This document shows, piece by piece, positions 46,102 to 63,473 of a stretch of 64,000 nucleotides of DNA. The stretch's first letter is position 1; each line of letters begins with the position of its first letter. The notes beneath the pieces are model-generated. The model saw only the letters and a list, made by a program, of their open reading frames with translations. It did no database searches and was not told where the DNA came from. The stretch comes from a virus. Location of the stretch: positions 3,139-67,138 of the IMG/VR virus record IMGVR_UViG_3300037508_001008. One strand, written 5' to 3'. The position numbers were made by a program, and so were the translations under genes.

Positions 46102-47112
46102 ATGGAAAACGAAATGGCACAAGATTCTGAACAAGAAGTCATCTTGCCAAAGATGAAACAGGAATCTAAGGCACTCGAAGTGGCAATAGCTCAACTCCAA
46201 AGAAAATACGGTGCTGGATCAGTCGTTAAGCTTGGGTCAACAAGCGTTAAGCCCTGGGACTCAATTTCAACTGGAGCTGCAAATCTCGATGTTGCCCTTG
46301 GAATTGGAGGACTACCAAGAGGTAGAGTGGTGGAGATATTCGGACCAGAGTCATCTGGTAAATCTACTATCGCTCTAACAACAGTCGCCAAGGCTCAGCA
46401 AATGGGCCTCACGTGCGCGTACATCGACGCTGAGCATGCTTTGGACCCAGTGTACATGCAGGCCATTGGAATTGACCTAGACAACCTTTTATTGGCTCAG
46501 CCAGATCACGGAGAACAAGGTCTTGACATCGCAGACTCTTTAATTAGAACTGGTGACATTGGAATCATTGTTATCGACTCTGTTGCCGCACTTGTTCCAA
46601 AAGCTGAGTTAGATGGAGAAATGGATCAGGCACATATGGGACTTCAGGCACGCATGATGGCTAAGGCCCTAAGAAAGCTTACTGGACTTGCTGCTCAGCA
46701 CGGCACCTTAATCATTTTTATCAATCAACTGCGCAATAAGATTGGAGTTATGTTTGGTAATCCAGAAACTACTCCAGGAGGAATGTCACTTAAGTTCTAC
46801 GCCTCTGTACGTATTGATGTTCGTAAGCGTGAAGATATTAAAGATAAATCTGGTGATTCTGTGGGAGTTACAGTCAAAGCCAAGATTATCAAAAATAAGA
46901 TGGCGCCACCAATGAAAATAGTAGAGTTTGATATCTTATATGCTCGCGGGATAGATGAGTATGGTTGCCTATTTAATCTTGGAATGGACAGAGGAATCTT
47001 TACCCAAAAGGGCGCATGGGTTTACTATAACGGAGAGAACTTTGCTCAAGGGCGAGACAACGCTATTGAGAAGCTAAAGTCTTTACCGGAAATTATTCAA
47101 CAAATCAAGTGA
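46102..47112 (+). CDS. recA: RecA recombinase
   Basis: LGIGGLPRGRVVEIFGPESSGKST, IDSVAALVP, FINQLR, GNPETTPGG.SLKFYASVR. Confidence 0.97.
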   Translation: MENEMAQDSEQEVILPKMKQESKALEVAIAQLQRKYGAGSVVKLGSTSVKPWDSISTGAANLDVALGIGGLPRGRVVEIFGPESSGKSTIALTTVAKAQQMGLTCAYIDAEHALDPVYMQAIGIDLDNLLLAQPDHGEQGLDIADSLIRTGDIGIIVIDSVAALVPKAELDGEMDQAHMGLQARMMAKALRKLTGLAAQHGTLIIFINQLRNKIGVMFGNPETTPGGMSLKFYASVRIDVRKREDIKDKSGDSVGVTVKAKIIKNKMAPPMKIVEFDILYARGIDEYGCLFNLGMDRGIFTQKGAWVYYNGENFAQGRDNAIEKLKSLPEIIQQIK

Positions 47113-48347: not shown

Positions 48348-48650
48348 ATGATTACATGTATGAGTGATGTTATAGGAAAGTACGCAATGGACAGTGAGGG
48401 TAACGCGTTGCCCATGCGTAGATCATATACTGGGAAGTTTAGCGCCCATACGGGCACTGAAGTGTGGTTACGTGCAACCTTCTATGGTGCAGGTGAAACA
48501 GATGCAGTTCAGTTCGGGCACATCTGCTCAAATACAGAGTGGTTTAACCGCGAATTTCGTGGTCGTATGATCACGATTGAACAAGAAATGAAATATAGTT
48601 ATACAATGGGCGTATGGTACTGGACTAATACGGTCCACCACGCACGCTAG
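48348..48650 (+). CDS. Hypothetical protein (array unit 1)
   Basis: RBS GAAAGGA; ends at the first junction. Confidence 0.65.
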   Translation: MITCMSDVIGKYAMDSEGNALPMRRSYTGKFSAHTGTEVWLRATFYGAGETDAVQFGHICSNTEWFNREFRGRMITIEQEMKYSYTMGVWYWTNTVHHAR

Positions 48651-48838
48651 TTAAAAGAAGGTTTGTTCCCGGGGATTTCGGTCCTCGGGAACTTCCTTTT
48701 TTTGAGGATAGGCCATTGTCCTTGCTGGTAGCCAGAATGCAGGCATAAAACCAGTCCGGGTGACGCCGGTACATCAGTCAACGTAATAATCACGTTCAGT
48801 ACGTTAAGCTGAACAAAGGCATGTTTCTTGGAGGAATC

Positions 48839-49108
48839 ATGTTCTCATTCATTAATAAGAAGGTTGTATTGGTTATTGCGGCGATTGTCGCAATGTTGTT
48901 GGTATTGGAGCCTACCAGCAACTTGACAGTAGAAGTACTGTCCACCCCAAGTAATCTGGCCTGGACGCTCTTGGGCTTCCTGGTTGGCATCATCAATTGG
49001 GGAATGCTGGTGATGGTGGCCATTGGCTTCACCGTCGCCTACTTGGCCAGGACCCGGACCATTGACTGGTCACAGGTAAAAGCTTACTTCCGCTCAGAAG
49101 AAGCTTAA
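48839..49108 (+). CDS. Membrane protein (unit 2)
   Basis: GGAGG RBS; 2-3 hydrophobic helices. Confidence 0.7.
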   Translation: MFSFINKKVVLVIAAIVAMLLVLEPTSNLTVEVLSTPSNLAWTLLGFLVGIINWGMLVMVAIGFTVAYLARTRTIDWSQVKAYFRSEEA

Positions 49109-49349
49109 TACAATGAGGTGATGGTCCACCTCTTTAATAAAGAAGAAGGTTTGTTCCCGGGGATTTCGGTCCTCGGGAACTTCCTTTTTTTGAGGATAGG
49201 CCACTGTCCTTAAATCTGGTATCTGTTTAGTGTAAAACCAGACGATGTTTGTCACATTGTTAGCGTTGCAGACTATAGAACACCTGCAATTTAAAAGACT
49301 AGGAGACTACGCGAGCCTTAACAGCGTATTATGATTCCTAGGAGGAATT

Positions 49350-49796
49350 ATGAACGAAATGCAAATCAGAATCCTGATGCTCAGGATCTTGGGAAATATC
49401 ATCATGAGCAATGGCATCACCATGCTCGCATCAGAGGTGATCGTTGTTGACGGTCTCGTCTCAACCACGGTGCGCATGGGTGGTCGTGATTGCCACCACC
49501 AGCCCAACTCCACCAATCAGTGGTGGAATGCAATGTCAAATGTCTCGTACTGGGATTGGACAATTGTTAATGAAGCTGACCGAGTGGAAAATCACGGCAA
49601 CAAATTCCACGTGGGATGTCAGCTGGACTACGACATTGAGCAGATTGATTCTGCCCTTTATGTAGTTGAATGGCAAGTGAATCGTTTGCCGAAGATCACG
49701 ATTAGCAACAAGATCTCTGAAAATGAGATCAACTTGTTAGGTGACAGGTTGGAGGATCAATTTGGGCGAGTTGTACGCGCTCAAACTGTAAGTTAA
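49350..49796 (+). CDS. Hypothetical protein (unit 3)
   Basis: AGGAGG RBS; bounded by junctions. Confidence 0.7.
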   Translation: MNEMQIRILMLRILGNIIMSNGITMLASEVIVVDGLVSTTVRMGGRDCHHQPNSTNQWWNAMSNVSYWDWTIVNEADRVENHGNKFHVGCQLDYDIEQIDSALYVVEWQVNRLPKITISNKISENEINLLGDRLEDQFGRVVRAQTVS

Positions 49797-49923
49797 TAAA
49801 TAAGCCAGGGCCTAGCTAAAAGAATTGGAGTTCTCTCTTACGCATCCAGCGTAGGAGGGAACTCCTTTTTTTGGGATAGACCATTGGGGTCAATCTCACC
49901 TAGCTGATGGAGGTCAGCAAATT

Positions 49924-50187
49924 ATGAAAGTATCAGAAATAATCAACTCGTTGGTGTATCGTCAAACAGGCAGGGATGAATACATCCTTTTGCCTGAGGG
50001 TACTCATGTCATTGATACGAATGGCTTCTCAGAAGTCAAAATCGAGAAGCTCATCAAGGCCTTCATGGCTTTCGATGAGGCGTATGAGGGGAACTCAGTC
50101 TGGTCATTGCACCAGGAAGTAACAGTCAGCAAGAAGGGTACTTCAATTGTGGTGGATGTCTACCACGAAGAGAGCACTCTTCACTAA
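49924..50187 (+). CDS. Hypothetical protein (unit 4)
   Basis: GGAGGT RBS; bounded by junctions. Confidence 0.7.
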   Translation: MKVSEIINSLVYRQTGRDEYILLPEGTHVIDTNGFSEVKIEKLIKAFMAFDEAYEGNSVWSLHQEVTVSKKGTSIVVDVYHEESTLH

Positions 50188-50314
50188 GTAAGTAGATAAG
50201 TAAGTAAGTAAGTAGAAGGGTTGTTCCCGGGGATTTCGGTCCTCGGGAACTCCCTTTTTTGGGGATAGACCATTGGGGTCAGTCCACAACTCACCAACGA
50301 AAGGAGGTGAAATA

Positions 50315-50491
50315 ATGGCTCCCACCTGGGACTCGGTTGGTGTTTGTTCGCTTTGCGGACAGGACATAACTGTAGAAGAGGTGGTGGATTACCAGTACAA
50401 GCTCCCTACAGGGGAACTTGGAACAACGGTTCACCGCACCAGGGATGAATCCATGCCGCTCGTTCACGGGCAGTGCGTCGATTCTCTCTGA
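50315..50491 (+). CDS. Small Cys/His protein (unit 5)
   Basis: AAGGAGGTG RBS; CSLC...HGQC. Confidence 0.7.
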   Translation: MAPTWDSVGVCSLCGQDITVEEVVDYQYKLPTGELGTTVHRTRDESMPLVHGQCVDSL

Positions 50492-50676
50492 GACCCTCGT
50501 CCCACAAGCCGCTACTTGAAAGAGAGTAGCCGGGGTGAACACTCCTAACCTGGGAACAGAATGGAGGCAACTCGTCCCTACCCTGGGGATCTTCGGATCC
50601 CTGGGGTAGAGACCCTACCCTTTTTTTTGAGGATAGGGGAAAGGCCCCTAGCTCATTCTCTTGAAAGGGGAATATA

Positions 50677-50820
50677 ATGGGTCAACCATATGAATGCATG
50701 GATGGGGTGTGTCAGGACGTAGTGTCCTGGTCACCTATGGGAATTGCAGCTGCAGTAGCCATTACGGTTATAGCTGTTTGCATCATTGCTTACGTTGTTG
50801 GAGAAATCCGACGCAAATAA
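50677..50820 (+). CDS. Small single-TM protein (unit 6, 47 aa)
   Basis: MGQPYECMDGVCQDVVSWSPMGIAAAVAITVIAVCIIAYVVGEIRRK; below the ORF track cutoff. Confidence 0.65.
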   Translation: MGQPYECMDGVCQDVVSWSPMGIAAAVAITVIAVCIIAYVVGEIRRK

Positions 50821-50936
50821 GCAAGTAAGTAAGTAGTTGAGTTGTTCCCCGGGGATTGGCAGAGATGCTGGTCCTCGGGGAAACTTCTTTTTTGACCATA
50901 GACCCCCGAACAACCGAAGGGGTCAGAAAGGTTGTC

Positions 50937-51224
50937 GTGAAGAACGAATGCGTTTCCTGTGGGAAACAGTATAGCAATGCAAAGTACACACTGCCCGTCC
51001 TCCCTAATGGAGAAATGGGTTACTGCGCTAGTTGCAGAAAGGAGGTAATGCAATTGGAAGACATGTATGGTGAGCCTGCAGCTTACCACGACAACATGTG
51101 TCAAAATGCTGACTACAACGGCAGCATTAATATGTTGGAAAAGCGTTATAACCAATGGCGTCATGTAGAAAGAAAGTTGCGTCTTATCTGTGAAGTAATT
51201 ACACAGATAAACCGACGCAAGTAA
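50937..51224 (+). CDS. Zinc-finger protein (unit 7)
   Basis: GTG start after GAAAGG; CVSC...CASC. Confidence 0.65.
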   Translation: MKNECVSCGKQYSNAKYTLPVLPNGEMGYCASCRKEVMQLEDMYGEPAAYHDNMCQNADYNGSINMLEKRYNQWRHVERKLRLICEVITQINRRK

Positions 51225-51340
51225 ATTAGTTAAGTTAGTTAAGTTAGTTGAAGTTGTTTCCCCTGGGGCATTTGCCTTGGGGGAAACTTCTTTTTTTGGG
51301 ATAGATCAACCGGATCAGTCCATAACAGAAAGGGGCTATC

Positions 51341-51586
51341 ATGGCCTTGTTATTTCAAGAAGGAAAGGTGATTGGCTCCCAGCCTTCACCGAACATTGGG
51401 GATGTCTTGGACTTCCACAACTGCTTCGGAAAAGTCCTGGGATATGATGATCCTGTATCAACAAGCGAAATCTCGCAAGAGATTAGACTGTGGGTCCAGG
51501 ACCTGAATAACTTTTCCCTGTTTGAGGCTGTGTTGGTAAACACTTACCTCGGTATGGGGGAGTGGAGAATGCGCGTTCGTCGCTGA
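51341..51586 (+). CDS. Hypothetical protein (unit 8)
   Basis: GAAAGGGG RBS; bounded by junctions. Confidence 0.65.
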   Translation: MALLFQEGKVIGSQPSPNIGDVLDFHNCFGKVLGYDDPVSTSEISQEIRLWVQDLNNFSLFEAVLVNTYLGMGEWRMRVRR

Positions 51587-51591
51587 CTCCA

Positions 51592-51618
51592 TAAGTAAGT
51601 AAGTAAGTAAGTAAGTAA
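51592..51618 (+). repeat. (TAAG)6 tandem repeat; related tracts at 50185, 50818, 51222, 53585
   Basis: Seen directly between stop codon and hairpin. Confidence 0.9.
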
Positions 51619-51700
51619 AGGTTGTCCCTGGGGAGAAATCCCTGGGGACTTCCTTTTTGCCAATAGACCATCGGGGTCGAAGGCAAGGAGGAAACAGAAA

Positions 51701-52168
51701 ATGGCAAAACGCAAGAGAAAGGAGCGGAAGGAGAATTGGAGTAAAATCCAACCTCTTCAACCGAAGTATAAAGAGGATGGATACGATTTTCATCCTCCCT
51801 TTACGGAAGTTGACTTCTTCGTTGGTGAAGTAGACCAGATCTGCAAAGATCATGGCTACTACATCAATGTAGTCACCTTTCTTGTCCCGACCCAGTTCTT
51901 TCTGCAGAGCAGGGAGAACCCGAACGAGAACTACTACGTTCGCACTCGTGGATACCGCTGGTCGGTAACACAAGTCAACGAAGAGAGTTTTAGTTCAGGC
52001 GAACTGCTGATCTTTAAAGAGGTTGAAACCGTTTCTGACGGCATGAAGATCGGTAAGGGTGTCAGGGGCACTCAACCCACAGCTCTCATCGCAGAGGGCC
52101 TATGGGAGCAGGGGCTTCGTACATTAACAGATATTTTGTTAGTCATAGAAGCCAATCGTCTCAAATAG
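51701..52168 (+). CDS. Hypothetical protein (unit 9)
   Basis: AAGGAGG RBS. Confidence 0.75.
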   Translation: MAKRKRKERKENWSKIQPLQPKYKEDGYDFHPPFTEVDFFVGEVDQICKDHGYYINVVTFLVPTQFFLQSRENPNENYYVRTRGYRWSVTQVNEESFSSGELLIFKEVETVSDGMKIGKGVRGTQPTALIAEGLWEQGLRTLTDILLVIEANRLK

Positions 52169-52281
52169 ACGATCAGTCACGTTAATCCACTATCCCAGGG
52201 GGGGGCTTCGGTCTCCCTCTGGGAAGGAGGTCTCTTTTTTGCCAATAGACCATCGGGGTCGAAGGCAAAGGAGAAAACAAA

Positions 52282-52527
52282 ATGAAATGGCAAGATCAAG
52301 GCGCCTGTAAGGGTGTCACAGAACACGCAATATTCTTCCCAAACACAAACGAGAAAGGATGGCAGGCCAAACAAGCCAAGGCAATAACAATTTGCCGAGG
52401 CTGCCAAGTCAAGGAGGAGTGCCTCAACCATGCCCTCCAAAATGATGAACACTTCGGTGTTTGGGGCGGGACCACCGAAAGGGGACGCCGAAGGATCAGG
52501 AGTCTCAGGCTCCAGGTCCAAAGCTGA
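52282..52527 (+). CDS. whiB: WhiB family Fe-S transcription regulator (unit 10)
   Basis: W...AC, FFP, CRGCQVKEECL, GVWGGTTERGRR. Confidence 0.95.
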   Translation: MKWQDQGACKGVTEHAIFFPNTNEKGWQAKQAKAITICRGCQVKEECLNHALQNDEHFGVWGGTTERGRRRIRSLRLQVQS

Positions 52528-52625
52528 CAAAAAGGGTATGCCCTCTTCTACGCAACCAGCGTAGGAGGGGGTTCCCCTTTTTGCCAATAGACCATCGGGG
52601 TCGAAGGCAAAGGAGAAAACAGAAA

Positions 52626-52862
52626 ATGAAACAAAAGTTCAGAATTGATGAATGGTGCAAACTCATCATGAACCACGAGCCATATCAGCTCACTTTCGAA
52701 TACGACCGCGATATAGACGCGTACTACGCGTTAATCAAAGATTTTTGGGGTCGGAATGTGTCTGACATTGCATTCATGGACGAAATTGACGGAGAGATGT
52801 GGCCTGTCTACCAAACCTCCGACATTCTTTCGAATTCCGCGTTAGACCTCGACTGGGACTGA
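52626..52862 (+). CDS. Acidic hypothetical protein (unit 11)
   Basis: AAGGAG RBS in the shared leader. Confidence 0.7.
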   Translation: MKQKFRIDEWCKLIMNHEPYQLTFEYDRDIDAYYALIKDFWGRNVSDIAFMDEIDGEMWPVYQTSDILSNSALDLDWD

Positions 52863-53033
52863 GACGATACGGAAACATTTGAGTAGTACTCTCTGAAAAA
52901 TGATGACGACGACAATCCATGGGAGTAGTCACCCCATGAAGAAGGATGTCCCCTTGAACCTCTCGTATGGGTTCAGGGGACTCCCCTTTTGCCGATAGGC
53001 CATCGGGGCCGAAGGCAAAGGAGAAAACAGAAA

Positions 53034-53570
53034 ATGAAACATAAAAATCCATATAAAAGAGTCAAGCAGTTGCTTGAATCTTTTGAAATTGCAAATGGAC
53101 CAATTGAAATCCGTGAAATTACAAATGGACCAATTGAAATCGGTCAAGTAAGGTCAATCAGTGTTCAGTTGGATGATGGAAGTCTGCAACGATATGTTGC
53201 TGTGGCTTCAATGCCAGAACAAGCTTTTGTTCAAATCATTCTCATTGGAGATGATGAGCAGGGGGCTGGCTACAACGACATCATTCTTGAACAAAATGAA
53301 CGACCAATGCCGCTTTCGTCTGTCTTACAAACAGACTGGACATTTGGGGTTTTAATTGAAGATTTGGGGCCGGTTTATTCCACCTTAAGTCAGGAAACAC
53401 TTAATCTTGTTTCCAAAATGAATAATTGGTCGGGACGGGATTTGTCTCGCGTTGGGTTTCATCCCAATGACCAAGACCCAAACCGGATTGAAATAATTGA
53501 AGAGAACTTCCAAGTTTCCCATTGGGCGCTGGGTCGTGTTTTAAGTCATTTAGAAAATCTGGAAAACTAA
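53034..53570 (+). CDS. Hypothetical protein with a possible PemK/MazF-like fold (unit 12)
   Basis: GQV...RYVAVAS...VQIILI...SVLQTD...LG..YSTLS..TLNLV spacing; 30-bp tandem duplication (EI.NGPIEI x2). Confidence 0.45.
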   Translation: MKHKNPYKRVKQLLESFEIANGPIEIREITNGPIEIGQVRSISVQLDDGSLQRYVAVASMPEQAFVQIILIGDDEQGAGYNDIILEQNERPMPLSSVLQTDWTFGVLIEDLGPVYSTLSQETLNLVSKMNNWSGRDLSRVGFHPNDQDPNRIEIIEENFQVSHWALGRVLSHLENLEN

Positions 53571-53691
53571 TTTAATTTTTAACGTAAGTAAGTAAAAGGT
53601 TTGTTCCCGGGGATTTCGGTCCTCGGGAACTTCCTTTTTTTGAGGATAGGGGAAAGGCCCCTAGCTCATTCTCTTGAAAGGAGGTGAAAAC

Positions 53692-53886
53692 ATGGATGAA
53701 TACATTGAATACTTGAAGGAGGTAGCGGACCAAGCAATCCGCCACATCTCCGACTGCACGTGTGATCCTTGGCACGTGTGCCGACCCAGAGAGCGTCTCA
53801 TTGACGAACTCAATGGGATCACACATGGATATTCCCGCAACACAAGTGCGTTCCGGGAAGACTACAAGTTTTGGTGGAATTGCTGA
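53692..53886 (+). CDS. Small Cys-containing protein (unit 13)
   Basis: AAGGAGGTG RBS. Confidence 0.7.
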   Translation: MDEYIEYLKEVADQAIRHISDCTCDPWHVCRPRERLIDELNGITHGYSRNTSAFREDYKFWWNC

Positions 53887-53997
53887 GATATTCAGCCACT
53901 AAGTAGTCACATAAAGGTCGTCCCTAGGGAGAAATCCCTGGGGACTTCCTTTTTGCCGATAGGCCATCGGGGCCGAAGGCAAAGGAGAAATACAACA

Positions 53998-54453
53998 ATG
54001 GAAAACAATAACGAAACTCGAGCCGTGTTCATCAACGCGGGAGAGAACCGTGTTATGCTCAACCCGCTCAAGGGGCAATGGGAACACAAGGGCAAGAAAG
54101 TAAACTTGTGGTTCGATGTCCCTAACGGCGCGCGCGAGTTCGTCGTTGACGCCCTACAGAAGACCATGATGGTCAACGACAAGGGTCAGCAGGTCATGGT
54201 GAACTCAAACGTGATCATCTGGGAAATGCCCACGAACCTCATGGTGTTGAATAAGAACGCCAAGAATGAGTGGTATTTCACTGTCACGATCAACGACGAT
54301 GGCTTGGAAGAATGGTTAGATATGGTCACCGAAAACGTCCGTCCAAAGGGCGCAATCAGTGAGAAGAATGAACCAGTCATCAGCGACGCTCGAGCAAAGC
54401 TGCAAGAGAAGTTGGCTCAAATCAAGAAGATCGACGAAGACTTCGATTTCTGA
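53998..54453 (+). CDS. Possible ssDNA-binding protein, paralog of 58981-59481 (unit 14)
   Basis: Beta-rich, acidic tail DEDFDF; shared NAGE, PNG.RE, WEM and L.EWL motifs. Confidence 0.5.
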   Translation: MENNNETRAVFINAGENRVMLNPLKGQWEHKGKKVNLWFDVPNGAREFVVDALQKTMMVNDKGQQVMVNSNVIIWEMPTNLMVLNKNAKNEWYFTVTINDDGLEEWLDMVTENVRPKGAISEKNEPVISDARAKLQEKLAQIKKIDEDFDF

Positions 54454-54566
54454 TCCACGGTAAAGCTAGCGAAAGGGTATGCCCTCTTCTACGCAACCAG
54501 CGTAGGAGGGGGTTCCCCTTTTTGCCAATAGACCATCGGGGTCGAAGGCAAAGGAGAAATACAACA

Positions 54567-55121
54567 ATGGATAACAAGGAAAAATCCCGCAAGCAGGTGT
54601 ATCGAGAGATTCGCCAGCGTCAGAAAGCTCAGATCAAGAAGGCCAGAAAGAAGGCCAGAATTCAGGAAAAGGCCTACAAAAAGGTCAATCCATTTTGGAC
54701 ATTCTTTATCCTTCTCACCTCAGCATGGGTGCAGACTGCAGGGTTCAAGGTTGACAAGAAGGGACGTCCCTTCTTCTCGGTCAAGTTCAAGACCGAAGGC
54801 CAGCCAAAGGCTCACCTTGTCAAGACCGCATGCGTTTGGCGGGATGACAAGGGCAGTTACCGCGTTCTCATGAACGTCTCTCGCAGTTACTGGTTTCGTG
54901 TCTACCATGAAAACGGTAGCTACGAGATGAAGGAAGCCACCAAGCACTACAGCATTAGCTTTCTTCTGAAGAACCAGAAGACAGTGCCTGTGTTAATCAA
55001 TCAGAAGGTGATGATCGGTTTCTTGCCGATTGAACTGGATGACATGATGAACGCGATCATGGACCGTGCCTTGGGGTTGGACATTCCAGTTCCGCAGAAC
55101 ACGGACGACGAGCCGTTCTGA
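54567..55121 (+). CDS. Basic protein with an SSB-like acidic tail (unit 15)
   Basis: Basic N-terminal helix; ends NTDDEPF. Confidence 0.55.
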   Translation: MDNKEKSRKQVYREIRQRQKAQIKKARKKARIQEKAYKKVNPFWTFFILLTSAWVQTAGFKVDKKGRPFFSVKFKTEGQPKAHLVKTACVWRDDKGSYRVLMNVSRSYWFRVYHENGSYEMKEATKHYSISFLLKNQKTVPVLINQKVMIGFLPIELDDMMNAIMDRALGLDIPVPQNTDDEPF

Positions 55122-55270
55122 CAGGAGGTTTTAGTCCTCTCTACCTACGCAGCCAGCGTAGTTAGGGAGGACTTTCCTCTTATGTATAGTTATTTAGTAT
55201 TAATTAAAACTTCTTTTTTGCGCCTAGGCCATCGGCCTTACCTCAGATAGGGGGCGCAAAGGAGGGCATC

Positions 55271-57781
55271 ATGCCCAATAACAAGGAGCCTGAACAGGGC
55301 ACCGAGGCCGCCGGACCTACTCCGGCAACCCGCGAGAGGGATGTCCGACAGGGCTTCTTTCACGGGATCGTAAAGCGCACAGGTCGCTGGCTTCGGCTGG
55401 TGTCAGGTGCACCTCTCCTCTCAGGAGATGAGGTATTTGAAGAGTTTGAGGGAGGGCCTTATGCCCCCGCATTCCTCATGCACTTCTTTGCTGATCGATT
55501 CCGCGTTGAAGTCCGAAAGGTCAACGAGAAGGCGCTTAAGGGCGTCAAGCCGGTGATCAAGTCGGATGGACCCGTGGTACTTCCCACGCCAATCTCTAGC
55601 GAAGTGATTCGCTTCAGTACGGCGTCAGAGCAGTACGTTGTCCGAGTTAAGGGCAATGACGGCTGGCTTGCCTCTTTCAAGGAGATCGGTCTTTTGATCG
55701 GTAATTCGAAGAAGATGAGCAAGCGTCTCGTGGAGCTTGTGCGCTTGTCGTGCATGTGGCTCTATCGAGATGCCAAAAATGCTCTGAAAGTGGAAGTCAT
55801 CGACCATAAGGCGTTGGGCATGCCCGACAGCTACGTGGACGGTGCTACCGCAATCTCCAAGGGATTGGCTATCAAGTGCGTGAAGTCGAATACTTCGTCT
55901 TCGCGTGCTTGGCGAGCTCGTCACATCTGGGCGATCCGCAGTGGTAAAACCGCTGTTGTTCAGATCCGGATGATGTGCGAACTGGGCTTGATTAAGGGTA
56001 ATGCCGTAATCGTGTCCAAGTCAATGATGAACGGTTTCGACATTCGTACGTTTGAGCCAAACATTAAGACTGAGGTTCGCACCTCTGGGTGGCAGTGGTT
56101 GACGATTGAACCGACATATGGGGCTATCCCTGTAAAGTCGGACGATCAAACCCATGCCATCTATCGGCGTGTGGAAGGTCTTTATGACTCAACCACGTTA
56201 CTCGATACTCTTCAGAAGAGCCTGGAGCAATTCTTCCAGGACCTAAAAGAGGGTAAGAGGTCTGAGTGGATGGAAAAGTTGGCAGATAATGCCGACGAAC
56301 TCCTTCACGAAGATGAGGAGGACAAGTTCGGTCAAAACCGAGGAATGGTCCAGCTGATTCAGGAAACGGTTGCTAAGCTTAATAGGCTTGGTGTACCTCT
56401 ACTGAGCTGTCAGACCCTCTTGTTCATGTCCGTGAGAGGACTCACACTGTCATTGCTTGGCGATAGACGGGATGAGTTTAATCACGAAGTGAAGGGTGAA
56501 GTATGGCGTGATAAGAATCGGCACTGGTTTCCCGTGCCGTGGGCGTATGCCGCTCACGTTTATACAAAGGAGGTACTGGAAATCTTTGGGTACAAGATGC
56601 CCAAAGGTAACCATGCCTTCTACCACGAGCAGACTCACAGCTTCGTGGTACCTGGTAAATTCTTTGAGGTTAACTTAAAGAATCATGGTGGTCCAGACTT
56701 AGATGATACGGTGAAGGTTCATATTCGCCGTGTCCGTCATAAGAATGGGCGAATCCAGACAATGGCAATCATAATGCGCAACCCGAACGATTTCGGGGAG
56801 TGGTCAATGATTTCCGTTGGCAAGGACATGGGACCTGTATTCCATGCCTACGACCAGGAACCGCCAATGGTAGATTTGGAACAGCTAACCAAGTTCGTTC
56901 CACAATTTACGAAGCTGGAGAAGAGACTGAATATTGGTACTTTACCGGCCATGAAGAATCCACCCAAATTGGGACCGGAGTTTTCGTTGTCCGATGAAGC
57001 CAGAATCAGACTCGCTGCAATGGGTTTTCCGCCAGGCGTTGGAGGGACTGTAATCCCGAAGATGATCTGGAACGCACTCCTTGATCAGCCGATCATGAAT
57101 CTTGTAGACTTGAACGAGAACATCATTGACGTTCTCCAACAAGGTCAGGGCTCTACGGCTGACACAAATGCCATCAAGCAATGGGTGGCAGATGTGTTTC
57201 TCGATCTTGGTCAGCAATTGAGTTTCAAACTGGATCCATTCTGGTTCCATACTCGAATGCCAAAGCCAATTATTGAGGAACAGGGATGGCAAGCCGATGA
57301 GGCAGAAAATTCCTCGTGGATGACCCTTCACCTGGAGAGGGAGTCAATGGCTCGTAAATACATTAAGGAAATGACGGATTGGCTTAATTGTCAGATCGTT
57401 ATGCCTGAAGTATTGTCGAACATTGACTTTACGAACCAGGAATACACCAATGGTAACATTAAGTTGGCCAAGGTGCGTTCCGATTATCGACGTATCATTA
57501 AGATGCAATCTAGTGAAGCGTGGGTAAATTGGTTCTCCGGAAAGTTGGCTGAGTCTGATGAAGACGATGAGCGTGGTGAAGAGTATACGGATCGTATGAT
57601 CTTACTACTCGCTCAACGCGCAATTGTCCAGAAGAAGGCGAGCCATCGATCCAATTACGACCAGTGGCTGTATTCGTTCTCTACGAAGAGCGAACGGCAC
57701 CCGGTAGATTGGTATATCCGGGCTCTCCGACGGGTACAGGATGGAACCTACGATTGGTTTCGTTCCAACAGTCAGCCCTAA
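55271..57781 (+). CDS. Putative single-chain two-barrel RNA polymerase, YonO/RNAi-RdRP-like (unit 16)
   Basis: D190GATAISKGLA, Q231IR..LIK242G, GGPD476LDD, IMR503NP, GVGGTV, ENIIDVLQQG. Confidence 0.65.
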   Translation: MPNNKEPEQGTEAAGPTPATRERDVRQGFFHGIVKRTGRWLRLVSGAPLLSGDEVFEEFEGGPYAPAFLMHFFADRFRVEVRKVNEKALKGVKPVIKSDGPVVLPTPISSEVIRFSTASEQYVVRVKGNDGWLASFKEIGLLIGNSKKMSKRLVELVRLSCMWLYRDAKNALKVEVIDHKALGMPDSYVDGATAISKGLAIKCVKSNTSSSRAWRARHIWAIRSGKTAVVQIRMMCELGLIKGNAVIVSKSMMNGFDIRTFEPNIKTEVRTSGWQWLTIEPTYGAIPVKSDDQTHAIYRRVEGLYDSTTLLDTLQKSLEQFFQDLKEGKRSEWMEKLADNADELLHEDEEDKFGQNRGMVQLIQETVAKLNRLGVPLLSCQTLLFMSVRGLTLSLLGDRRDEFNHEVKGEVWRDKNRHWFPVPWAYAAHVYTKEVLEIFGYKMPKGNHAFYHEQTHSFVVPGKFFEVNLKNHGGPDLDDTVKVHIRRVRHKNGRIQTMAIIMRNPNDFGEWSMISVGKDMGPVFHAYDQEPPMVDLEQLTKFVPQFTKLEKRLNIGTLPAMKNPPKLGPEFSLSDEARIRLAAMGFPPGVGGTVIPKMIWNALLDQPIMNLVDLNENIIDVLQQGQGSTADTNAIKQWVADVFLDLGQQLSFKLDPFWFHTRMPKPIIEEQGWQADEAENSSWMTLHLERESMARKYIKEMTDWLNCQIVMPEVLSNIDFTNQEYTNGNIKLAKVRSDYRRIIKMQSSEAWVNWFSGKLAESDEDDERGEEYTDRMILLLAQRAIVQKKASHRSNYDQWLYSFSTKSERHPVDWYIRALRRVQDGTYDWFRSNSQP

Positions 57782-57909
57782 TTAGAGGGATCAAGTAGCC
57801 ACTTAATGTGGTGAATGTCACAAGAGGAGCCTCTGCTACACATCCAGTGTAGTTAGAGGCTCTTCTTTTTTGCCTAGGCCATCGGGGCCAACGGTAAGGA
57901 GAAACAGAA

Positions 57910-58329
57910 ATGAAAAAGACAACAAAGAAGGCGCAGGCCAAAAAGGTGTCCCGAGAGGAGCTAATCGATCAGATCGAAAAGCTGTTCGAAGGAGGCCAAA
58001 AAGCGTTGAACCTCACGCAAAAGCGAAACATCCTGAAGAAATTGCAGGAGTTCCGAAACAGCGAATTGGAATTCAACGCCGAACTGGCTCAGCAAATCAT
58101 TGAGGCTCTTGCCAAGTACCAGGGAATGAAGAAGGTTGCTACTACACCTCAGCCCCTCAACCCACAGGGGAAAGCCCAGGTCAAGTGCCTTGGCTACTGG
58201 AACTCAAACGGCAAGCATGTGTGCGAAGAAATCCTTGAGGGAACCCGACAGGAAATCGGACGCAAGGCCAATCGGTGCGAAAGCTGCCGAAAGGAATACA
58301 CGCCTCTCAAGGCAATCAGCAACAGCTGA
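57910..58329 (+). CDS. Helical protein with a C-terminal zinc finger (unit 17)
   Basis: AAGGAG RBS; C..C..CESC. Confidence 0.7.
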   Translation: MKKTTKKAQAKKVSREELIDQIEKLFEGGQKALNLTQKRNILKKLQEFRNSELEFNAELAQQIIEALAKYQGMKKVATTPQPLNPQGKAQVKCLGYWNSNGKHVCEEILEGTRQEIGRKANRCESCRKEYTPLKAISNS

Positions 58330-58436
58330 TCACAAAAGCAACACAAAAGGGTTTTGTCCCCTCCTACGTTCAGTACGTGGGTAGGGGACTTCCCTTTTTC
58401 GCCTAGGCCATCGGGGCCAACGGTAAGGAGGGCATT

Positions 58437-58664
58437 ATGCCTAAGAAAAACAAATTCAGAAAGTACAACTTGGACAACCGAGATTGCGACTACTGTGGAG
58501 AATTTCACTGGGCGGGTGAAATGACTTACCTGGGAAACATTCCGGGAAGAGGACAGACATTCATCTGCTCAAAGTGTGAGCTTCGGAGGAACGCAATCCA
58601 GAAAGCCAAGAAAGTGAAGAAAGAGCGAGAAGACCTCAAGGCATCGCAGCCAAAGTTGTTCTGA
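58437..58664 (+). CDS. Zinc-finger protein (unit 18)
   Basis: CDYC...CSKC; AAGGAGG RBS. Confidence 0.7.
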   Translation: MPKKNKFRKYNLDNRDCDYCGEFHWAGEMTYLGNIPGRGQTFICSKCELRRNAIQKAKKVKKEREDLKASQPKLF

Positions 58665-58671
58665 AGCTAAG

Positions 58672-58723
58672 AGAGTAAGGTCATCATTCATATTGACAAC
58701 ATGGATGATGACCTTCTCTTTTT
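58672..58723 (+). terminator. Intrinsic terminator
   Basis: AAGGTCATCAT/ATGATGACCTT-type stem followed by a T-run. Confidence 0.7.
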
Positions 58724-58832: not shown

Positions 58833-58922
58833 TTCTAAAAAGAAGGGATTAACTTCCTTCTAAAAAGAAGGGATTCTCTTCATTCTAAAAAGAAGGGACT
58901 AACTTCCTTCTAAAAAGAAGGG
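58833..58922 (+). repeat. Four TTCTAAAAAGAAGGG direct repeats with a 25-bp period
   Basis: Copies start at 58833, 58858, 58883, 58908; single AAAAAGAAGGG copies near 59608, 59968, 60557, 61058, 63920. Confidence 0.92.
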
Positions 58923-58980
58923 AGAGTTTCCCAACGAGATACCTGCTCGTACACAGGTTTGCCATCAAGGAGGAAACGAA

Positions 58981-59481
58981 ATGGCACAAAATACCAAGTC
59001 CAACAAGACCATCAGCGTGTGGGTCAACGCGGGAGAAAGCAAGATCGTGTTGAACCGCAAGGATGGTGCAGAATGGAGTCGTCCACTCTTCTTCAATGCT
59101 CCTAACGGAGTCCGCGAGAAGATCGCCATCTGGCTCGGAAAGGTGTTGACCGACGAGAACGGCAAGCCCGTACTCAAGCTCAACAAGATCACGGGTCAGA
59201 TGGAGAAGCAGGTCGACTTCACGAAGAAGGCCACGAACAACTGCGAGTGGGAGATGGACCTGAAGATGGTTAAGACAGAAGCCATCAAGTCGGGCGCAAA
59301 CGCTGGCAAGTTGGCGGACTCGATCACCATCACGGATGAGAACTTGTCCGAATGGTTGAAGCAGTTGGTGTTCACCAAGCGCGGTAGCATCCGTGCAAAC
59401 GTGGCAACCACGCTCAGCGAGTTCGAGCCGACCATCATCGGTGACGACGACGAGGACGGTGACGACTTCGAGGATTTCTGA
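58981..59481 (+). CDS. Possible ssDNA-binding protein, paralog of 53998-54453
   Basis: AAGGAGG RBS; strongly biased codons; tail DDDEDGDDFEDF. Confidence 0.55.
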   Translation: MAQNTKSNKTISVWVNAGESKIVLNRKDGAEWSRPLFFNAPNGVREKIAIWLGKVLTDENGKPVLKLNKITGQMEKQVDFTKKATNNCEWEMDLKMVKTEAIKSGANAGKLADSITITDENLSEWLKQLVFTKRGSIRANVATTLSEFEPTIIGDDDEDGDDFEDF

Positions 59482-59672
59482 TCCTCAGAGTCAGCGGTCA
59501 AGGAACGAAGGTTGGGTACTACGAGAAATCGTGGTACCCAGCCTAAGTTTCTTATAAAAAGATTCTTTTTTATTTATAGAGCTCTCTTTAATCTTTGAGC
59601 ACATACAAAAAAGAAGGGGGATTATCATCTCTCTTTATTTTTTACTTATAGATACCAGAAAGGAAATAAGTC

Positions 59673-59969
59673 ATGGTGATGTTAATTAATGGTATGCTTT
59701 TGGGCATTTGTTTTACTTTTGCCGGCGCATATCTATATCAAACAGCTCGTTATCGCTTAACTCATGGTAAAAAGATCCTTGTTGCAAAGCAAGAGGTTGG
59801 ATATGTCATTAGTTGTAGATATAATGGTTCAAAGCATTGGTTTTTTATTGATGAGTATGGTCAAAAGTCACAAGATCATTTCGATAAAAAGCAACATGCA
59901 GTAAGAACATGCAAAAAAGACTTCTTATCACGGCGACACAAGCAAACCACTATTGCACGTATCGCCTAA
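59673..59969 (+). CDS. Hypothetical protein with an N-terminal TM segment
   Basis: GAAAGGA RBS. Confidence 0.65.
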   Translation: MVMLINGMLLGICFTFAGAYLYQTARYRLTHGKKILVAKQEVGYVISCRYNGSKHWFFIDEYGQKSQDHFDKKQHAVRTCKKDFLSRRHKQTTIARIA

Positions 59970-59985
59970 AAAGAAGGGTGTGTGA

Positions 59986-60054
59986 ACTCCACTAGGGGAG
60001 TATAAACCGTTTTAAGCCTAGTGCGTTCCCCAGATAACACTGGGGAGATAACTG
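59986..60054 (+). ncRNA. Pistol-class self-cleaving ribozyme
   Basis: P1 ACTCC/GGAGT; pseudoknot ACTAGG/CCTAGT; TAAA, TTAAG and GCG conserved segments; P3 TTCCCCAG/CTGGGGAG; R-U cleavage dinucleotide; P2 GTT/AAC. Confidence 0.8.
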
Positions 60055-60511
60055 AGTTTCCGCGTACATACCAGTGTACGTCCGGCCCGATTATAAATCG
60101 GAATAAGGATATAAGATCTGGATAATCTTATATGGAATATTATATTATGATTGCAGATCCCGTCATAATATAAGAACTCCGATGCAGGAGGAACCTGCTG
60201 CGGTAACCATATTGGTACCGTAATACAGGGAAACAGGTGTAGTCAGTTCTAGTTCAGGACTACATCGGCATAGATATAACTAGAGGGCTCTTGTATACGG
60301 ATGTCCAAAGAACATATTGTTCGGCCTGATCAGCCAGTATATACTGAAAATAATCTCAAGCAGTTATACTTGAGTACCGGGAGCACCCAGTCCCCGAAGG
60401 ATGTCGGAGATAGTAAACACTATCAACTGGGCTATTCTAAAGTTCTCCCCCCCGGGTTGAGCACCTTGCGTTTTTACCCTCCTTTTCGCAAGAGTGCTCC
60501 CCGGGAGAGAT
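60049..60511 (+). ncRNA. Large structured non-coding RNA of unknown class
   Basis: More than ten consecutive helices plus pseudoknot and loop-loop complementarities; no credible ORF. Confidence 0.65.
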
Positions 60512-60594
60512 CATAGTCTTCTAAAAAATTCTTTTTTCTTTATAATTGTCCCTTCTAAAAAGAAGGGGTGTAATACCAACAGAAAGGAACCCTT

Positions 60595-60789
60595 ATGCAG
60601 TTAATTAAAAATTTAATAAAGATCTACGCAGCGATTCTTGTATGCTGTGCTATCGCCGGCGCAATTACCGGTGGTGCAAAAGCAGTTAAAGAGTTGCGCG
60701 CAGAAAACAACAAACCATTGTTCAATCATTCTCCAGAATTTCTGAAAATATTGAACCACTATGAAAAGAAAGAAAAGGTAGCATCATGA
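60595..60789 (+). CDS. Small membrane protein
   Basis: GAAAGGA RBS; N-terminal TM segment. Confidence 0.65.
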   Translation: MQLIKNLIKIYAAILVCCAIAGAITGGAKAVKELRAENNKPLFNHSPEFLKILNHYEKKEKVAS

Positions 60790-60935
60790 GTATTTCAAGC
60801 AAAATGGGTAAAATTGCAGGTAAGGTCGTGACCGGATCCAAGGCAGCACCCAAAGCAACAAAACGGAAACTCAGTACGTTGAAGAACGAACTGGCTGAAG
60901 GTTATCGTTCTGCAGCTACAAACGACTCAGAGTAA
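60786..60935 (+). CDS. Small basic protein (49 aa)
   Basis: ATGA overlap with the upstream gene; MSISSKMGKIAGKVV...; followed by hairpin 60949-60986. Confidence 0.55.
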   Translation: MSISSKMGKIAGKVVTGSKAAPKATKRKLSTLKNELAEGYRSAATNDSE

Positions 60936-61128
60936 TCCAATCAAGTCATTAGTGAAGTGGTTATCGCAAGGTAGCCACTTCACTAACCCTGATAGCAAAT
61001 GTCTATTTTTATTCTAAAAAATTTTTTAAGAAAAGATCTAGACCTTTGTCTACTTCCAAAAAGAAGGGTGATATCAATCATCCTTATTACACAACAGTAA
61101 ACTACACACAGAAAGTACACTTATCATT

Positions 61129-62232
61129 ATGAATACAAATATTAACTTTGCTGAACTAGGAATTGGAGATTTCTCCGATCTTGGTGAAATCATTTCTAAT
61201 CCTGAAATCTTTGAAGGTGGATCTCTTTCCACTACTCCAATTAAGATTGGAAAGACCACCAAGTATCCCGTCAGCATTAACGGACGACCATTTCCAGGTC
61301 TCCTTACCGTAAGCAATGCAAAGTTGACTCGTTTGTCTCTTATTGAGCAAACACGTGCAGATGGTCACACCTACATGATTGTAACTGGCATTATGAAAGA
61401 CGTCAATTTCAATCTTGATCTTGTGGTCAATGGACAAAACATCAACATAGTAGACTTCATGTTTGAACTTGCTAAGCAGGCAGCTGGATACAAGGATGCT
61501 GATCGTACAAGTTTTATCAAAACTTTGACAGAAGACCTTAAGATGCCTTTGTTGGATGACATGCAAATCTTCTTCCAACAGATGGGCGCCTCAGCAGCTG
61601 CATACGAAGAATTTATTCTTAAGCTAAACGAACGTGGTCTTGTTATGGCAGATGACACTAAGCGTGTCAATCCTGAACAAAGAAACCGTATTCAGCGTGC
61701 ATATGTGCTCCGAGACATTCCTGTAACTGAATTTGAGATTGGTACTACCGATCCCAATCAGTCTGATATGTTCCGTAGTACAAATGGACAAGCTGAAGCA
61801 GGCTTCATTGATCTAGCAGATGCCATTTGGCGTAACTTTACTCGTATCATGAAGCTGCGTAAACTTCGTAGTATCAAGCTTTCTGAGATTGAAAATTTGT
61901 CTGCACAAAATCCGGCAAATCTACAGGAAATGGCCAAGCAGTTAAAGACCGAAGCAACTCATATTCAGAAGCAGGCAAATTCTTTTGCAGGCAATCTGGG
62001 TGGTGCACGTCTTCGTTGGACTCGTAGTGAATCCACTGGCGAATGGACTGTAGATCAAAAGGCTGTGTATGATCCCACCTATGTTCCTTGCGGTAAGTTG
62101 ACCGTTCTTGGAACTGATGGTGAAGAGATCAAGGCAAACTTCTGGACTAATCGCTCAGAATCATCAAACGAAAACAAGCCAGTATTCTCTAACTTGGCTC
62201 AATCGTTGACTGACGAAGATTTCAAGCTCTGA
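61129..62232 (+). CDS. Hypothetical protein (367 aa) with an acidic C-terminal tail
   Basis: Long ORF ending LTDEDFKL; no family recognised. Confidence 0.8.
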   Translation: MNTNINFAELGIGDFSDLGEIISNPEIFEGGSLSTTPIKIGKTTKYPVSINGRPFPGLLTVSNAKLTRLSLIEQTRADGHTYMIVTGIMKDVNFNLDLVVNGQNINIVDFMFELAKQAAGYKDADRTSFIKTLTEDLKMPLLDDMQIFFQQMGASAAAYEEFILKLNERGLVMADDTKRVNPEQRNRIQRAYVLRDIPVTEFEIGTTDPNQSDMFRSTNGQAEAGFIDLADAIWRNFTRIMKLRKLRSIKLSEIENLSAQNPANLQEMAKQLKTEATHIQKQANSFAGNLGGARLRWTRSESTGEWTVDQKAVYDPTYVPCGKLTVLGTDGEEIKANFWTNRSESSNENKPVFSNLAQSLTDEDFKL

Positions 62233-62281
62233 CCCCCAGTTAGATGAGTTTGTCCGTTCTCACCAAAAACGGACACCCCTT

Positions 62282-62412
62282 GGGGCTAATGGTTACAAGT
62301 ATCTGGTTTAACGCATAATGCAATGGTCTAATCTTTAGATTACATTGTATATTATGGACATCATGTCTTCGTGCAACGCCATTTCAGGAAGGTTCGATTC
62401 CTTCAAGCTCCG
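62282..62412 (+). ncRNA. tRNA(Ala)/tmRNA-like mini RNA
   Basis: Acceptor GGGGCT/AGCTCC with G3-U70; T arm GAAGG-TTCGATT-CCTTC; no D or anticodon arm. Confidence 0.6.
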
Positions 62413-62419
62413 CCGAGTA

Positions 62420-62523
62420 CTGCAGGTAACACAATAAATCAGGGACACCTATGAACGTGGAACCGTGGATTGATGTTACACACTGTCATGTGTAATGTCT
62501 ACTGTGACAGCAGTAGCCTGCGG
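62420..62523 (+). ncRNA. Structured RNA with complementary hairpin loops
   Basis: Closing stem CTGCAGG/CCTGCGG; loops CTGTCA and TGACAG. Confidence 0.5.
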
Positions 62524-62578
62524 GAAAGCTTATTGCTTTTATTTTTAGTACATACAAAACAGAAAGGAAACTACAACA

Positions 62579-62743
62579 ATGGAATTTCACCTTTGTGAAA
62601 ATGAAAACTGTCGTCATCAATGCGAACAAGAAAGCTGCGATAGCATGATCCTATATCATGATGAACCGTATTGCTTCACACACTCGCCAGATGAAGGCTC
62701 ATCTTTCAGGAACTACGACTCTCGTACAGGAGGTTGGAAGTAA
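62579..62743 (+). CDS. Small Cys/His-rich protein (54 aa)
   Basis: GAAAGGA RBS; MEFHLCENENCRHQC...YCFTH. Confidence 0.6.
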   Translation: MEFHLCENENCRHQCEQESCDSMILYHDEPYCFTHSPDEGSSFRNYDSRTGGWK

Positions 62744-63030
62744 TGACAACTGAAATCAGAATGGCCACTATCAATACTCCCAGGTGTTGGCAGTGTGGTA
62801 AAACAGGCGAACTACAGATCTCTTCGGACATCTACTTCGCCGGCATCAAAAAGTTAGATGAAGGTGCTCTTATTCAAAACGCCTTTCCTTCACTCAATAG
62901 TGAACAGCGCGAACAAATCATGACTGGCATTCATCCCGAATGCTGGAAGAAAATGTTCCCGCCAGAACAAATTGAACTGAATGAAAATGGCGTACCAGTT
63001 AACTGGGATAATCACCCTAATAACATCTAA
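62743..63030 (+). CDS. Zinc-binding phage protein
   Basis: CWQCG...IQNAFP.L..EQRE..MTGIHPECW; TAATG coupling with AGGAGG RBS. Confidence 0.75.
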   Translation: MTTEIRMATINTPRCWQCGKTGELQISSDIYFAGIKKLDEGALIQNAFPSLNSEQREQIMTGIHPECWKKMFPPEQIELNENGVPVNWDNHPNNI

Positions 63031-63033
63031 TAA

Positions 63034-63080
63034 AATACCTAGTAGTCATATAACCTATGGCTACTAGGTATTCTTTATTT
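63034..63080 (+). terminator. Intrinsic terminator
   Basis: AATACCTAGTAG/CTACTAGGTATT stem followed by a T-rich tail. Confidence 0.7.
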
Positions 63081-63237
63081 AAGATAGTCTTCTGGGGGGG
63101 ACCCGCGAAGCGGGGGGGTCCCAGAACTGATTAGGTCTGCGATTCTCGCAGCAGTATGATATACTAACGTATAGTTAGTATGATTCTATTAAGACTTTTT
63201 ATTTAAAATAGTCTTTTAGCTGCGAGGCGCAAATACA

Positions 63238-63408
63238 ATGTATGTGATCGTCCAGAGAGACTCAGACAATGTTCATGTCTATGGCCCATATCACTCACAA
63301 TATGGAGCCAATTATGACATTCGTCATCTCGAGGAAATCAGTCCAGACTACTGTTACAAAGTACACAGACTCAATCTCCCAAAAAACTCTCCAAAATTCC
63401 GCAACTAA
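63238..63408 (+). CDS. Small hypothetical protein (56 aa)
   Basis: GAGG RBS; MYVIVQRDSDNVHVYGPY... Confidence 0.5.
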   Translation: MYVIVQRDSDNVHVYGPYHSQYGANYDIRHLEEISPDYCYKVHRLNLPKNSPKFRN

Positions 63409-63473
63409 CAAATACTTATGATATAATATATCCATAGGAAGGAACACCTATCAACACTGACATACAAAGGAGT

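Follow-up and report, generated by a model that had tools for sequence, protein, structure and literature searches.

The 64,000-nucleotide stretch analysed here (the window) makes up the final 64 kb of the 67-kb IMG/VR virus record IMGVR_UViG_3300037508_001008, for which CheckV gives a completeness of 32%. Minus-strand structural genes occupy its first 45 kb, assigned to a myovirus through PHROG matches to tail sheath, portal, terminase and capsid, and plus-strand genes follow from 46 kb onward, the first being a RecA/UvsX-like recombinase gene (46102..47112, +) that is conserved in all relatives and forms the left anchor of a variable region. Within this region, at 48348..58664 (+), open reading frames and inspection of the junctions delimit an array of 18 single-gene cassettes (c1–c18) joined by 17 junctions (J1–J17). 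Cassette c16 (55271..57781, +) encodes an 836-amino-acid RNA polymerase, here termed RNAP-1, and a block marked by a second short motif, AAAAAGAAGGG, starts 173 nt past the array end (58837..63930, +). We find that the array itself is real and that its cassettes resemble those at the promoter-early stem-loops (PeSLs) of T4-type phages (Arbiol et al. 2010, PMC2839356; Comeau et al. 2014, PMC4122927), here beside two unusual polymerases; what the present analysis adds is a natural swap in which polymerase and second motif change together.

Anatomy and covariation of the junctions

Every junction (17/17) has the same layout: a strong hairpin (−17 to −35 kcal/mol throughout), a run of four to eight T, 3–5 nt, TAG, an inner hairpin nested within an outer stem, and an AGGAG-like ribosome site, before which the stem-loop ends by 0–10 nt. 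We refer to the T-run, the short spacer and TAG together as the box. The spacer reads GAGGA, GGGA, GCCAA, GACCA, GCGCC, GCC or other sequences and starts with G in all junctions (16 of 17) but J17, which has C directly after the T-run. From TAG to the start codon there are 33–49 nt in 15 junctions, 112 nt in J1 and 153 nt in J2, and the distance from stop codon to T-run is 63–69 nt in 10 of 17. Inner stems have 3–6 bp and loops of mostly 5 nt, while the outer stem is variable. Inspection revealed no conserved sequence upstream of the T-run.

The layout is specific to the array. Across the window, a regular expression combined with a hairpin filter returned 16 array sites, with one further site on the plus strand and two on the minus strand; it missed J15, in which an AT-rich insert parts the hairpin from the box. 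A covariance model (R1), built from 22 seeds (alignment A3), matched 16 of 17 junctions, missing J6, and nothing else on either strand of the window at E<=1; across 21 sources, 55 of its 57 matches were sense to genes. Between 46 and 61 kb there are 39 terminator-like sites (14.4 +/- 4.3 after shuffling) and 14 sigma-70-like sites (shuffle mean 20.3), none of the latter inside a junction. Scans for transfer RNAs and Rfam families found no tRNA and no family match within the array. An earlier reading of the DNA from its letters alone (the sequence-only reading) had described one architecture repeated 17 times with no sigma-70 promoter pair, and both statements hold. Separately, a sigma-70 or actinobacterial −10 reading of the box was set aside by reasoning only, as the T at position 6 is missing.

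Pairing in the junction stem-loop is maintained in 76.8% of cells compared with 65.5% after shuffling, a level that none of 500 shuffles reached, and controls slid along the alignment all scored lower; double-change cells number 18 against 5.6 in shuffles. In the orthologues of J6, the five bases after the T-run covary with bases beside the start codon in three phages, the changes in L003 and L152 being compensatory (GACCA/GGTTGTC, GACAA/TTGTC and GATTA/TAATC in orthologous junctions). The covarying outer stem starts 0–2 nt from the purine after the T-run. Two details of the sequence-only reading need narrowing in this respect. Structure is indeed kept, but the hairpin sequences are not freely variable: they group into a small number of families, and some junctions have identical ones. 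The AAGG...CCTT closure of the long stem, described as general, is clear in only about 10–12 of the 17 junctions.

We propose that the upstream unit would be ended by the strong intrinsic-terminator hairpin and its U-tract, and that the phage-specific box (T-run, 3–5 nt, TAG plus purine) would restart expression, with transcripts beginning at the purine right after the T-run. The two-tier stem-loop would then lie at the 5′ end of the mRNA, protecting it and presenting the ribosome site. A terminator joined to a restart signal was one of the options raised by the sequence-only reading, and it is the one to which the hairpins, the T-runs and the behaviour of the box point. Anatomy and covariation are direct observations; promoter function and the start site we infer, the start being placed at that purine because the covarying outer stem begins beside it. 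The box as a restart promoter is favoured because it keeps a T-run of its own where it stands apart from the hairpin (in J15 and, in an AT-rich form, at 59,566), is missing after the terminator of g93, behind which no plus-strand gene lies, is conserved where the hairpin varies, and bounds the exchanged unit described below.

The same layout could also be explained by signals acting in RNA. Transcription of the array would then start at one upstream promoter or at a few, the AT-rich stretch at 48,140–48,330 being one candidate location; the hairpins would be attenuators or 3′ stabilizers, and box and stem-loop a processing, stability or translation-control site making one-gene mRNAs, much as RNase III sites cut between the early genes of phage T7. 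Such a view accommodates the absence of conserved sequence upstream of the T-run, as well as a covariation that takes in the bases after the T-run and beside the start codon, that is, the extreme 5′ end. However, the hairpins are very stable and, with their U-tracts, far above chance, and a single transcript would have to pass 17 of them at considerable cost. The box is fixed where the downstream hairpin differs, which suggests that a protein recognizes either DNA or a fixed motif; its retained T-run in J15 and at 59,566, and its absence after a terminator without a downstream gene, argue in the same direction, and the exchanged unit extends from box to T-run, as expected of self-sufficient expression units. 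Signals confined to RNA are, in our view, an unlikely explanation of the junctions.

Phage N4 offers another precedent: its virion carries a T7-like polymerase that uses a DNA hairpin promoter, with a stem of 5–7 bp and a loop of 3 nt, upstream of the start. In an analogous scheme, also raised by the sequence-only reading, the junction stem-loop would extrude as a DNA hairpin and act as promoter for a polymerase that is injected, transcription starting immediately ahead of the ribosome site. Structure that is kept while sequence varies would suit it, the 0–10 nt between hairpin and ribosome site would make a short leader possible, and a crAss-like virion two-barrel polymerase is reported to transcribe denatured DNA, its early promoters lacking a common motif in that account (bioRxiv 10.1101/2020.03.07.982082). 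However, the mostly 5-nt loops, the 3–6-bp stems and the variable outer stem are unlike N4, the polymerase encoded here is two-barrel and not T7-like, and the sequence-conserved part is the box and not the hairpin. No virion polymerase candidate was seen among the structural genes of the window, which covers about a third of the genome. The analysis gave this scheme no positive support and we consider it very unlikely.

Returning to the terminator–restart junctions, these are arranged along the plus strand as follows. J1 (48651..48820) has a hairpin, a run of seven T and a GAGGA-TAG box (48697), followed by a long structured leader before its ATG; J2 (49109..49349) has its box at 49185 and J3 (49797..49923) at 49866. 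J4 (50188..50314), in which (GTAA)n stops precede the hairpin (box 50255), and J5 (50492..50676; box 50621) hold the left and right breakpoints, respectively, of the c5 cassette shared with L003. J6 (50821..50936; box 50888) has a long inner loop and a spacer that pairs with bases beside the GTG start. There follow J7 (51225..51340; box 51291), J8 (51587..51700; (GTAA)n, box 51654), J9 (52169..52281; box 52235), J10 (52528..52625; box 52578), J11 (52863..53033; box 52987), J12 (53571..53691; box 53635), J13 (53887..53997; box 53950) and J14 (54454..54566; box 54519). J15 (55122..55270; box 55214) lies upstream of the polymerase gene and carries the AT-rich insert mentioned above, and J16 (57782..57909; box 57866) and J17 (58330..58436; box 58395) complete the series.

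One hairpin family (J3, J10, J14, J15 and J16) places a CA-N-CCAG loop inside ACGC...GCGT-type stems. It also occurs in L015 (8378–8400, 8790–8812, 9135–9155 and 9875–9897), thus spanning clades with just 43% polymerase identity, and may be a protein-recognized hairpin. Runs of (GTAA)n or (TTAG/TTAAG)n lie between stop codon and hairpin at 50188–50215, 50821–50840, 51225–51250, 51587–51618 and 53584–53596; stops in all frames precede the hairpin in about 8 of 17 junctions and may keep ribosomes off it.

Cassette exchange among related phages

A common frame of RecA, g65, g93, variable cassettes, polymerase, further genes and a 367-amino-acid protein is found in 25 related viral loci. Different cassettes sit inside this frame and those held in common keep their relative order, which is the outcome of the comparison of cassette order that the sequence-only reading had pointed to. 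Homologs of the cassette proteins were sought in 27 related loci, and 12 of the 17 proteins other than the polymerase have none in any of them. The junction is present in all clades, and of 102 box matches across the 25 loci, 97 have the orientation of the genes. Its spacer is clade-specific (GAGGA in the clade of the window, ATGGG or ATGAC/ATGGC in others), a form with an interrupted T-run occurs in L015, and box sequence and spacing are fixed in clades that differ in the downstream hairpin.

Exchange of a whole unit is observed directly at c5. From T-run to next T-run (50,255–50,628 of the window), 363 of 374 positions (97%) are identical to L003, while the flanks match at only 70 of 176 and 38 of 104 positions (about 40%) and the polymerases of the two phages are 59% identical. 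Because the unit is so much more similar than its flanks and the polymerases, c5 represents the recent exchange of one unit, its breakpoints falling within the T-run/TAG box that the phages share. Box and T-run, being common to all units and to related phages, would double as short homology patches at which whole units, from box to next T-run, would be inserted, lost and exchanged, as T4-type phages do at PeSLs. The breakpoints fit homologous recombination at the shared box, beside a RecA-like gene.

Judged on these comparisons, the array is a PeSL-like gene-shuffling scaffold without a sigma-70 promoter. As described for T4-type phages (PMC2839356, PMC4122927), PeSLs combine a terminator stem-loop with a restart signal and occupy the intergenic spaces of a hyperplastic region, where the single genes beside them, mostly orphans, are gained, lost and exchanged by recombination in the shared element; the elements here share these traits, their terminator and restart functions being predicted from sequence. 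PeSLs are reported, however, with strong sigma-70-like −35/−10 promoters for the host enzyme, preceded by AT-rich DNA, and no such pair exists here, and the conserved part is instead the T-run/N3–5/TAG box with its covarying stem-loop, in a different phage family that encodes two single-chain two-barrel polymerases.

Contigs from four lake runs in Logan break exactly at the junction repeats (window 48600–54600), yielding pieces of 376–1022 nt, and extend in pieces of 5–12 kb from the polymerase gene onward. Joints between junctions in these contigs were rejected as cassette variants or circles, their sides being mostly shorter than 36 letters and inside repeats. Arrays of this type would often be fragmented or mis-joined in short-read assemblies.

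The cassette-like layout recalls integrons, in which an adjacent IntI integrase acts with attC sites that have conserved core sites and the cassettes are promoterless. The sequence-only reading had accordingly suggested that junctions might be attC-like single-stranded recombination sites or, alternatively, structured ends of RNA segments copied by an RdRP-like enzyme, and the best fold matches of the polymerase (below) are indeed the RNA-dependent enzymes QDE-1 and RDR2. Against both ideas, the scanned proteins of the window (about a third of the genome) include no match to an integrase or tyrosine recombinase, no attC-type core was seen at the junctions, each cassette comes with a ribosome site and a box of its own, and the breakpoints lie in shared sequence beside the RecA-like gene, which fits homologous recombination. 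The phage fold relatives gp64, gp96 and YonO are DNA-dependent (for YonO, PMC5467207), the element is ordinary double-stranded DNA phage sequence in 20 lake metagenome runs, and nothing else points to copied RNA segments. We regard both as extremely improbable.

Single-chain polymerases and a second motif

The 836-amino-acid protein of c16 has no sequence match to any Pfam family, PHROG or solved chain of the PDB, and only matches scoring under 0.8 in the ESM Atlas; it has 131 metagenome homologs, on contigs of up to 216 kb. An AlphaFold model from a 40-sequence alignment (pLDDT 88.6) was matched by Foldseek to QDE-1 (E 6e-8, probability 1.0), maize RDR2 (E 1.2e-5) and the phage P32 gp64 polymerase (E 2.6e-3). 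Structural alignment with VIA-align gave Z scores of 12.3 over 592 residues for RDR2, 8.5 for P74 gp62, 8.4 for QDE-1 and 6.9 for P23-45 gp96. The model thus identifies the protein as a single-chain two-barrel RNA polymerase by fold, showing two double-psi beta-barrel domains and accompanying helices, as the sequence-only reading had supposed from its letters. YonO of SPbeta (PMC5467207) and QDE-1 and RDR2 (PMC7824862) are likewise described as single polypeptides of about 800–900 amino acids with both double-psi beta-barrels.

In the motif HGGPDLDD, D476, D478 and D479 form a DxDD signature that is invariant across 40 homologs and is a putative metal-binding triad by sequence. Four complete relatives, of about 200 kb each, encode a second, distant paralog of about 850 amino acids (RNAP-2) some 15 kb downstream, a position that falls beyond the end of the present record. 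The signature is kept in this paralog (HGGHDEDD) and in a 1508-amino-acid version of the polymerase introduced below (HGTHDGDD), and sequence alignment shows that the invariant basic residues K242 (in LIKGN), K148, K151 and R152, candidates for a second-barrel contribution to the active site, are kept in both as well. The RNAP-1 gene lies in the early-looking arm and not among the structural genes. A scan of the window proteins for DxDxD gave one unconvincing site, with one DxDD site in a 2223-amino-acid protein, and hhalign of the polymerase profile against that protein and a 1165-amino-acid protein returned probabilities of 0.1.

Downstream of the array the second motif takes over. The window contains nine exact copies of AAAAAGAAGGG, on the plus strand only and all at 58,837–63,930, a count reached by none of 100 shuffles; four of them stand in tandem at 58837–58922, ahead of gene d1. 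When the motif is loosened, 23 of the 25 related loci give 109 sense matches, of which 107 lie 3′ of the polymerase gene. Two complete genomes, G004 with 8 forward matches and G003 with 5, have them only between RNAP-1 and RNAP-2, and the motif is found about 36 nt before the RNAP-2 start in three of the four complete genomes, with a one-mismatch copy in the fourth.

The relationship between motif and enzyme emerges from two relatives, G001 and G002. Their RecA is 81% identical to that of the window, as close as in L003 and L004, and the GAGGA-TAG box is likewise shared. At the syntenic polymerase locus, however, they encode the 1508-amino-acid form, whose core has just 23% identity to RNAP-1. 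AAAAAGAAGGG is absent from them in sense orientation, and in its place are eight sense copies of AACAAAGTGGGG, at syntenic positions and beginning 92 nt after the 1508-amino-acid gene, while AACAAAGTGGGG has no copy in the window. Because AAAAAGAAGGG gives way to AACAAAGTGGGG alongside the 1508-amino-acid form while the box is unchanged, it is the second motif, and not the junction box, that appears to track the polymerase type. Fold and motif distributions are observed directly, and from this tracking we infer the pairing of enzyme and motif: RNAP-1 probably reads AAAAAGAAGGG, not the junction box, and would thereby drive the RNAP-2 gene. The resulting cascade would run from the box to RNAP-1, from RNAP-1 to the second motif AAAAAGAAGGG, and from there to RNAP-2, with the box itself read perhaps by a polymerase delivered in the virion, or perhaps by a host enzyme in modified form.

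These observations also bear on the proposal of the sequence-only reading that the array is a self-contained expression and shuffling platform, its junction box being the promoter of the 836-amino-acid enzyme encoded within. Box and polymerase family do co-occur in all 25 related loci, a box stands directly before the polymerase gene in the window, L003 and L004, and the P23-45 enzymes are reported to use short, non-sigma-like promoters (Chaban et al. 2024, PMC10770324). But G001 and G002 keep the GAGGA-TAG box with a polymerase only 23% identical, and a different motif changes along with the enzyme; nor can an enzyme encoded behind the box start the array unless it is in the virion, and its gene lies in the early-looking arm. 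The shuffling part of the proposal is supported by the c5 exchange and the differing cassettes, whereas reading of the array by its own polymerase is quite unlikely.

A cascade from the box through RNAP-1 to AAAAAGAAGGG has its nearest counterpart in P23-45, which is described as having two paralogous single-chain two-barrel RNA polymerases, one of them encoded inside the earliest transcription units, two short promoter motifs with separate genomic territories, and a conserved motif at some terminators (PMC10770324). That programme is experimentally shown in the published account, whereas all functions here are predicted from sequence. There is no detectable sequence similarity to the P23-45 system, the signature here is DxDD compared with DxDxD there, and no tape-measure-fused virion polymerase was seen in the window, about a third of the genome. 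For YonO, the account cited leaves the promoter undefined (PMC5467207), whereas the candidate motif here is backed by a natural swap.

Several further features lie in or near the second-motif block. An AT-rich T-run/N5/TAG box follows terminators at 58745, 59566 and 59638 of the window and at 3540–3560, 4340–4350 and 4740–4770 of L151 (G001), and in G001, as well as ahead of RNAP-2, the second motif is preceded at 6–7 nt by ATAG. A match to the Pistol self-cleaving ribozyme (59986–60053, +; E 1.3e-5, scoring 45.4 bits where the gathering cutoff is 34.5) begins 8 nt past a AAAAAGAAGGG copy, and a transcript from that motif would therefore start with the ribozyme. Upstream of the RNAP-2 gene of G004 (L157, 250–790) there are about 15 AATGAATCA-like words with a spacing of about 45–50 nt, iteron-like in arrangement and with no counterpart at that location in the remaining three complete relatives; no recurring motif was evident by eye after RNAP-2 in G004.

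The SSB-like tails noted by the sequence-only reading are real as sequence. Cassette c14 (53998..54453, +; 151 amino acids) ends in an acidic stretch with a final F and c15 (54567..55121, +; 184 amino acids) in DDEPF; d1 (58981..59481, +; 166 amino acids), a paralog of c14, the first gene behind the second motif and just outside the array, also ends in an acidic run with F. A single-sequence model of d1 (pLDDT 37.5) is too low in confidence to judge an SSB fold. Cassette c10 (52282..52527, +) encodes a WhiB-like transcription factor, which is the only clue to the host and hints at an actinobacterium.

G+C content rises from 0.33–0.38 to 0.44–0.51 between 46 and 60 kb of the window, a step of about 0.1–0.15 across the early arm (window 46000–60000, L003 and L004) that peaks in the polymerase gene at 0.51–0.53. 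In the divergent intergenic region between a ClpB-like ATPase gene and a small minus-strand gene, three tandem G6-rich units resembling GGGGGGAA occupy 45775–45802, adjoined by an AT-rich stretch of TATA repeats. On the minus strand, TTTGTTACTAT[AT]AA occurs at 13493–13608 and 21048–21172, upstream of the tail-sheath gene and another structural gene, and is a candidate late-class motif with two copies only.

Standing and significance of the proposed programme

The best explanation, to which as a whole we give modest preference, is that the window derives from an uncultured lake myovirus of about 200 kb and that the array is its hyperplastic early region, built of monocistronic units with terminator–restart junctions and box-bounded exchange, beyond which RNAP-1 would act on AAAAAGAAGGG. 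The region is contained in 20 lake-water metagenome runs, none of which is an RNA run, and public phage records gave neither a DNA nor a protein match.

A number of observations weigh against this explanation. The outer stem takes in the bases right after the T-run; if it acts in RNA, the start would therefore lie at or before those bases. Almost no conserved sequence lies upstream of that start save the T-run, an unusual layout for a promoter that read-through RNA would fit equally. Start sites, terminator efficiency and temporal class at the junctions are predictions from the DNA, and the host assignment depends on the one WhiB gene. The swap represents one lineage, as G001 and G002 are near-identical at this region and are the only carriers of the 1508-amino-acid polymerase or of AACAAAGTGGGG among the matches listed, and another co-varying factor could be the reader of the second motif. 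The box recurs in the second-motif block, and the two classes are thus not cleanly separated. Finally, the aspartate signature is DxDD and not the canonical DxDxD, which the 836-amino-acid protein lacks, and the active-site role of D476, D478 and D479 is putative.

A fuller version of the scheme can be put forward only tentatively. In it, the phages would carry a pair of undescribed DxDD two-barrel polymerases with short promoters of their own, in a three-step cascade in which RNAP-1 would act on AAAAAGAAGGG; enzyme and promoter would have been replaced together in one lineage, and the box would be both the promoter of a third, phage-brought enzyme and a recombination joint.

Very little is known about the promoters that single-chain two-barrel phage polymerases use. 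Among the reports cited here, mapped motifs are given only for P23-45 (PMC10770324), and for the crAss-like virion enzyme no promoter motif is reported (bioRxiv 10.1101/2020.03.07.982082). In the present phage family there are two candidate promoter classes with sharp boundaries, and in one case an enzyme has been naturally replaced together with its candidate motif. It also extends modular shuffling of the PeSL type to unrelated, abundant lake phages, by way of an element that is not of the sigma-70 kind. In its combination of stop hairpin, restart box, 5′ stem-loop and ribosome site, the junction would represent a compact natural design for insulated one-gene units.

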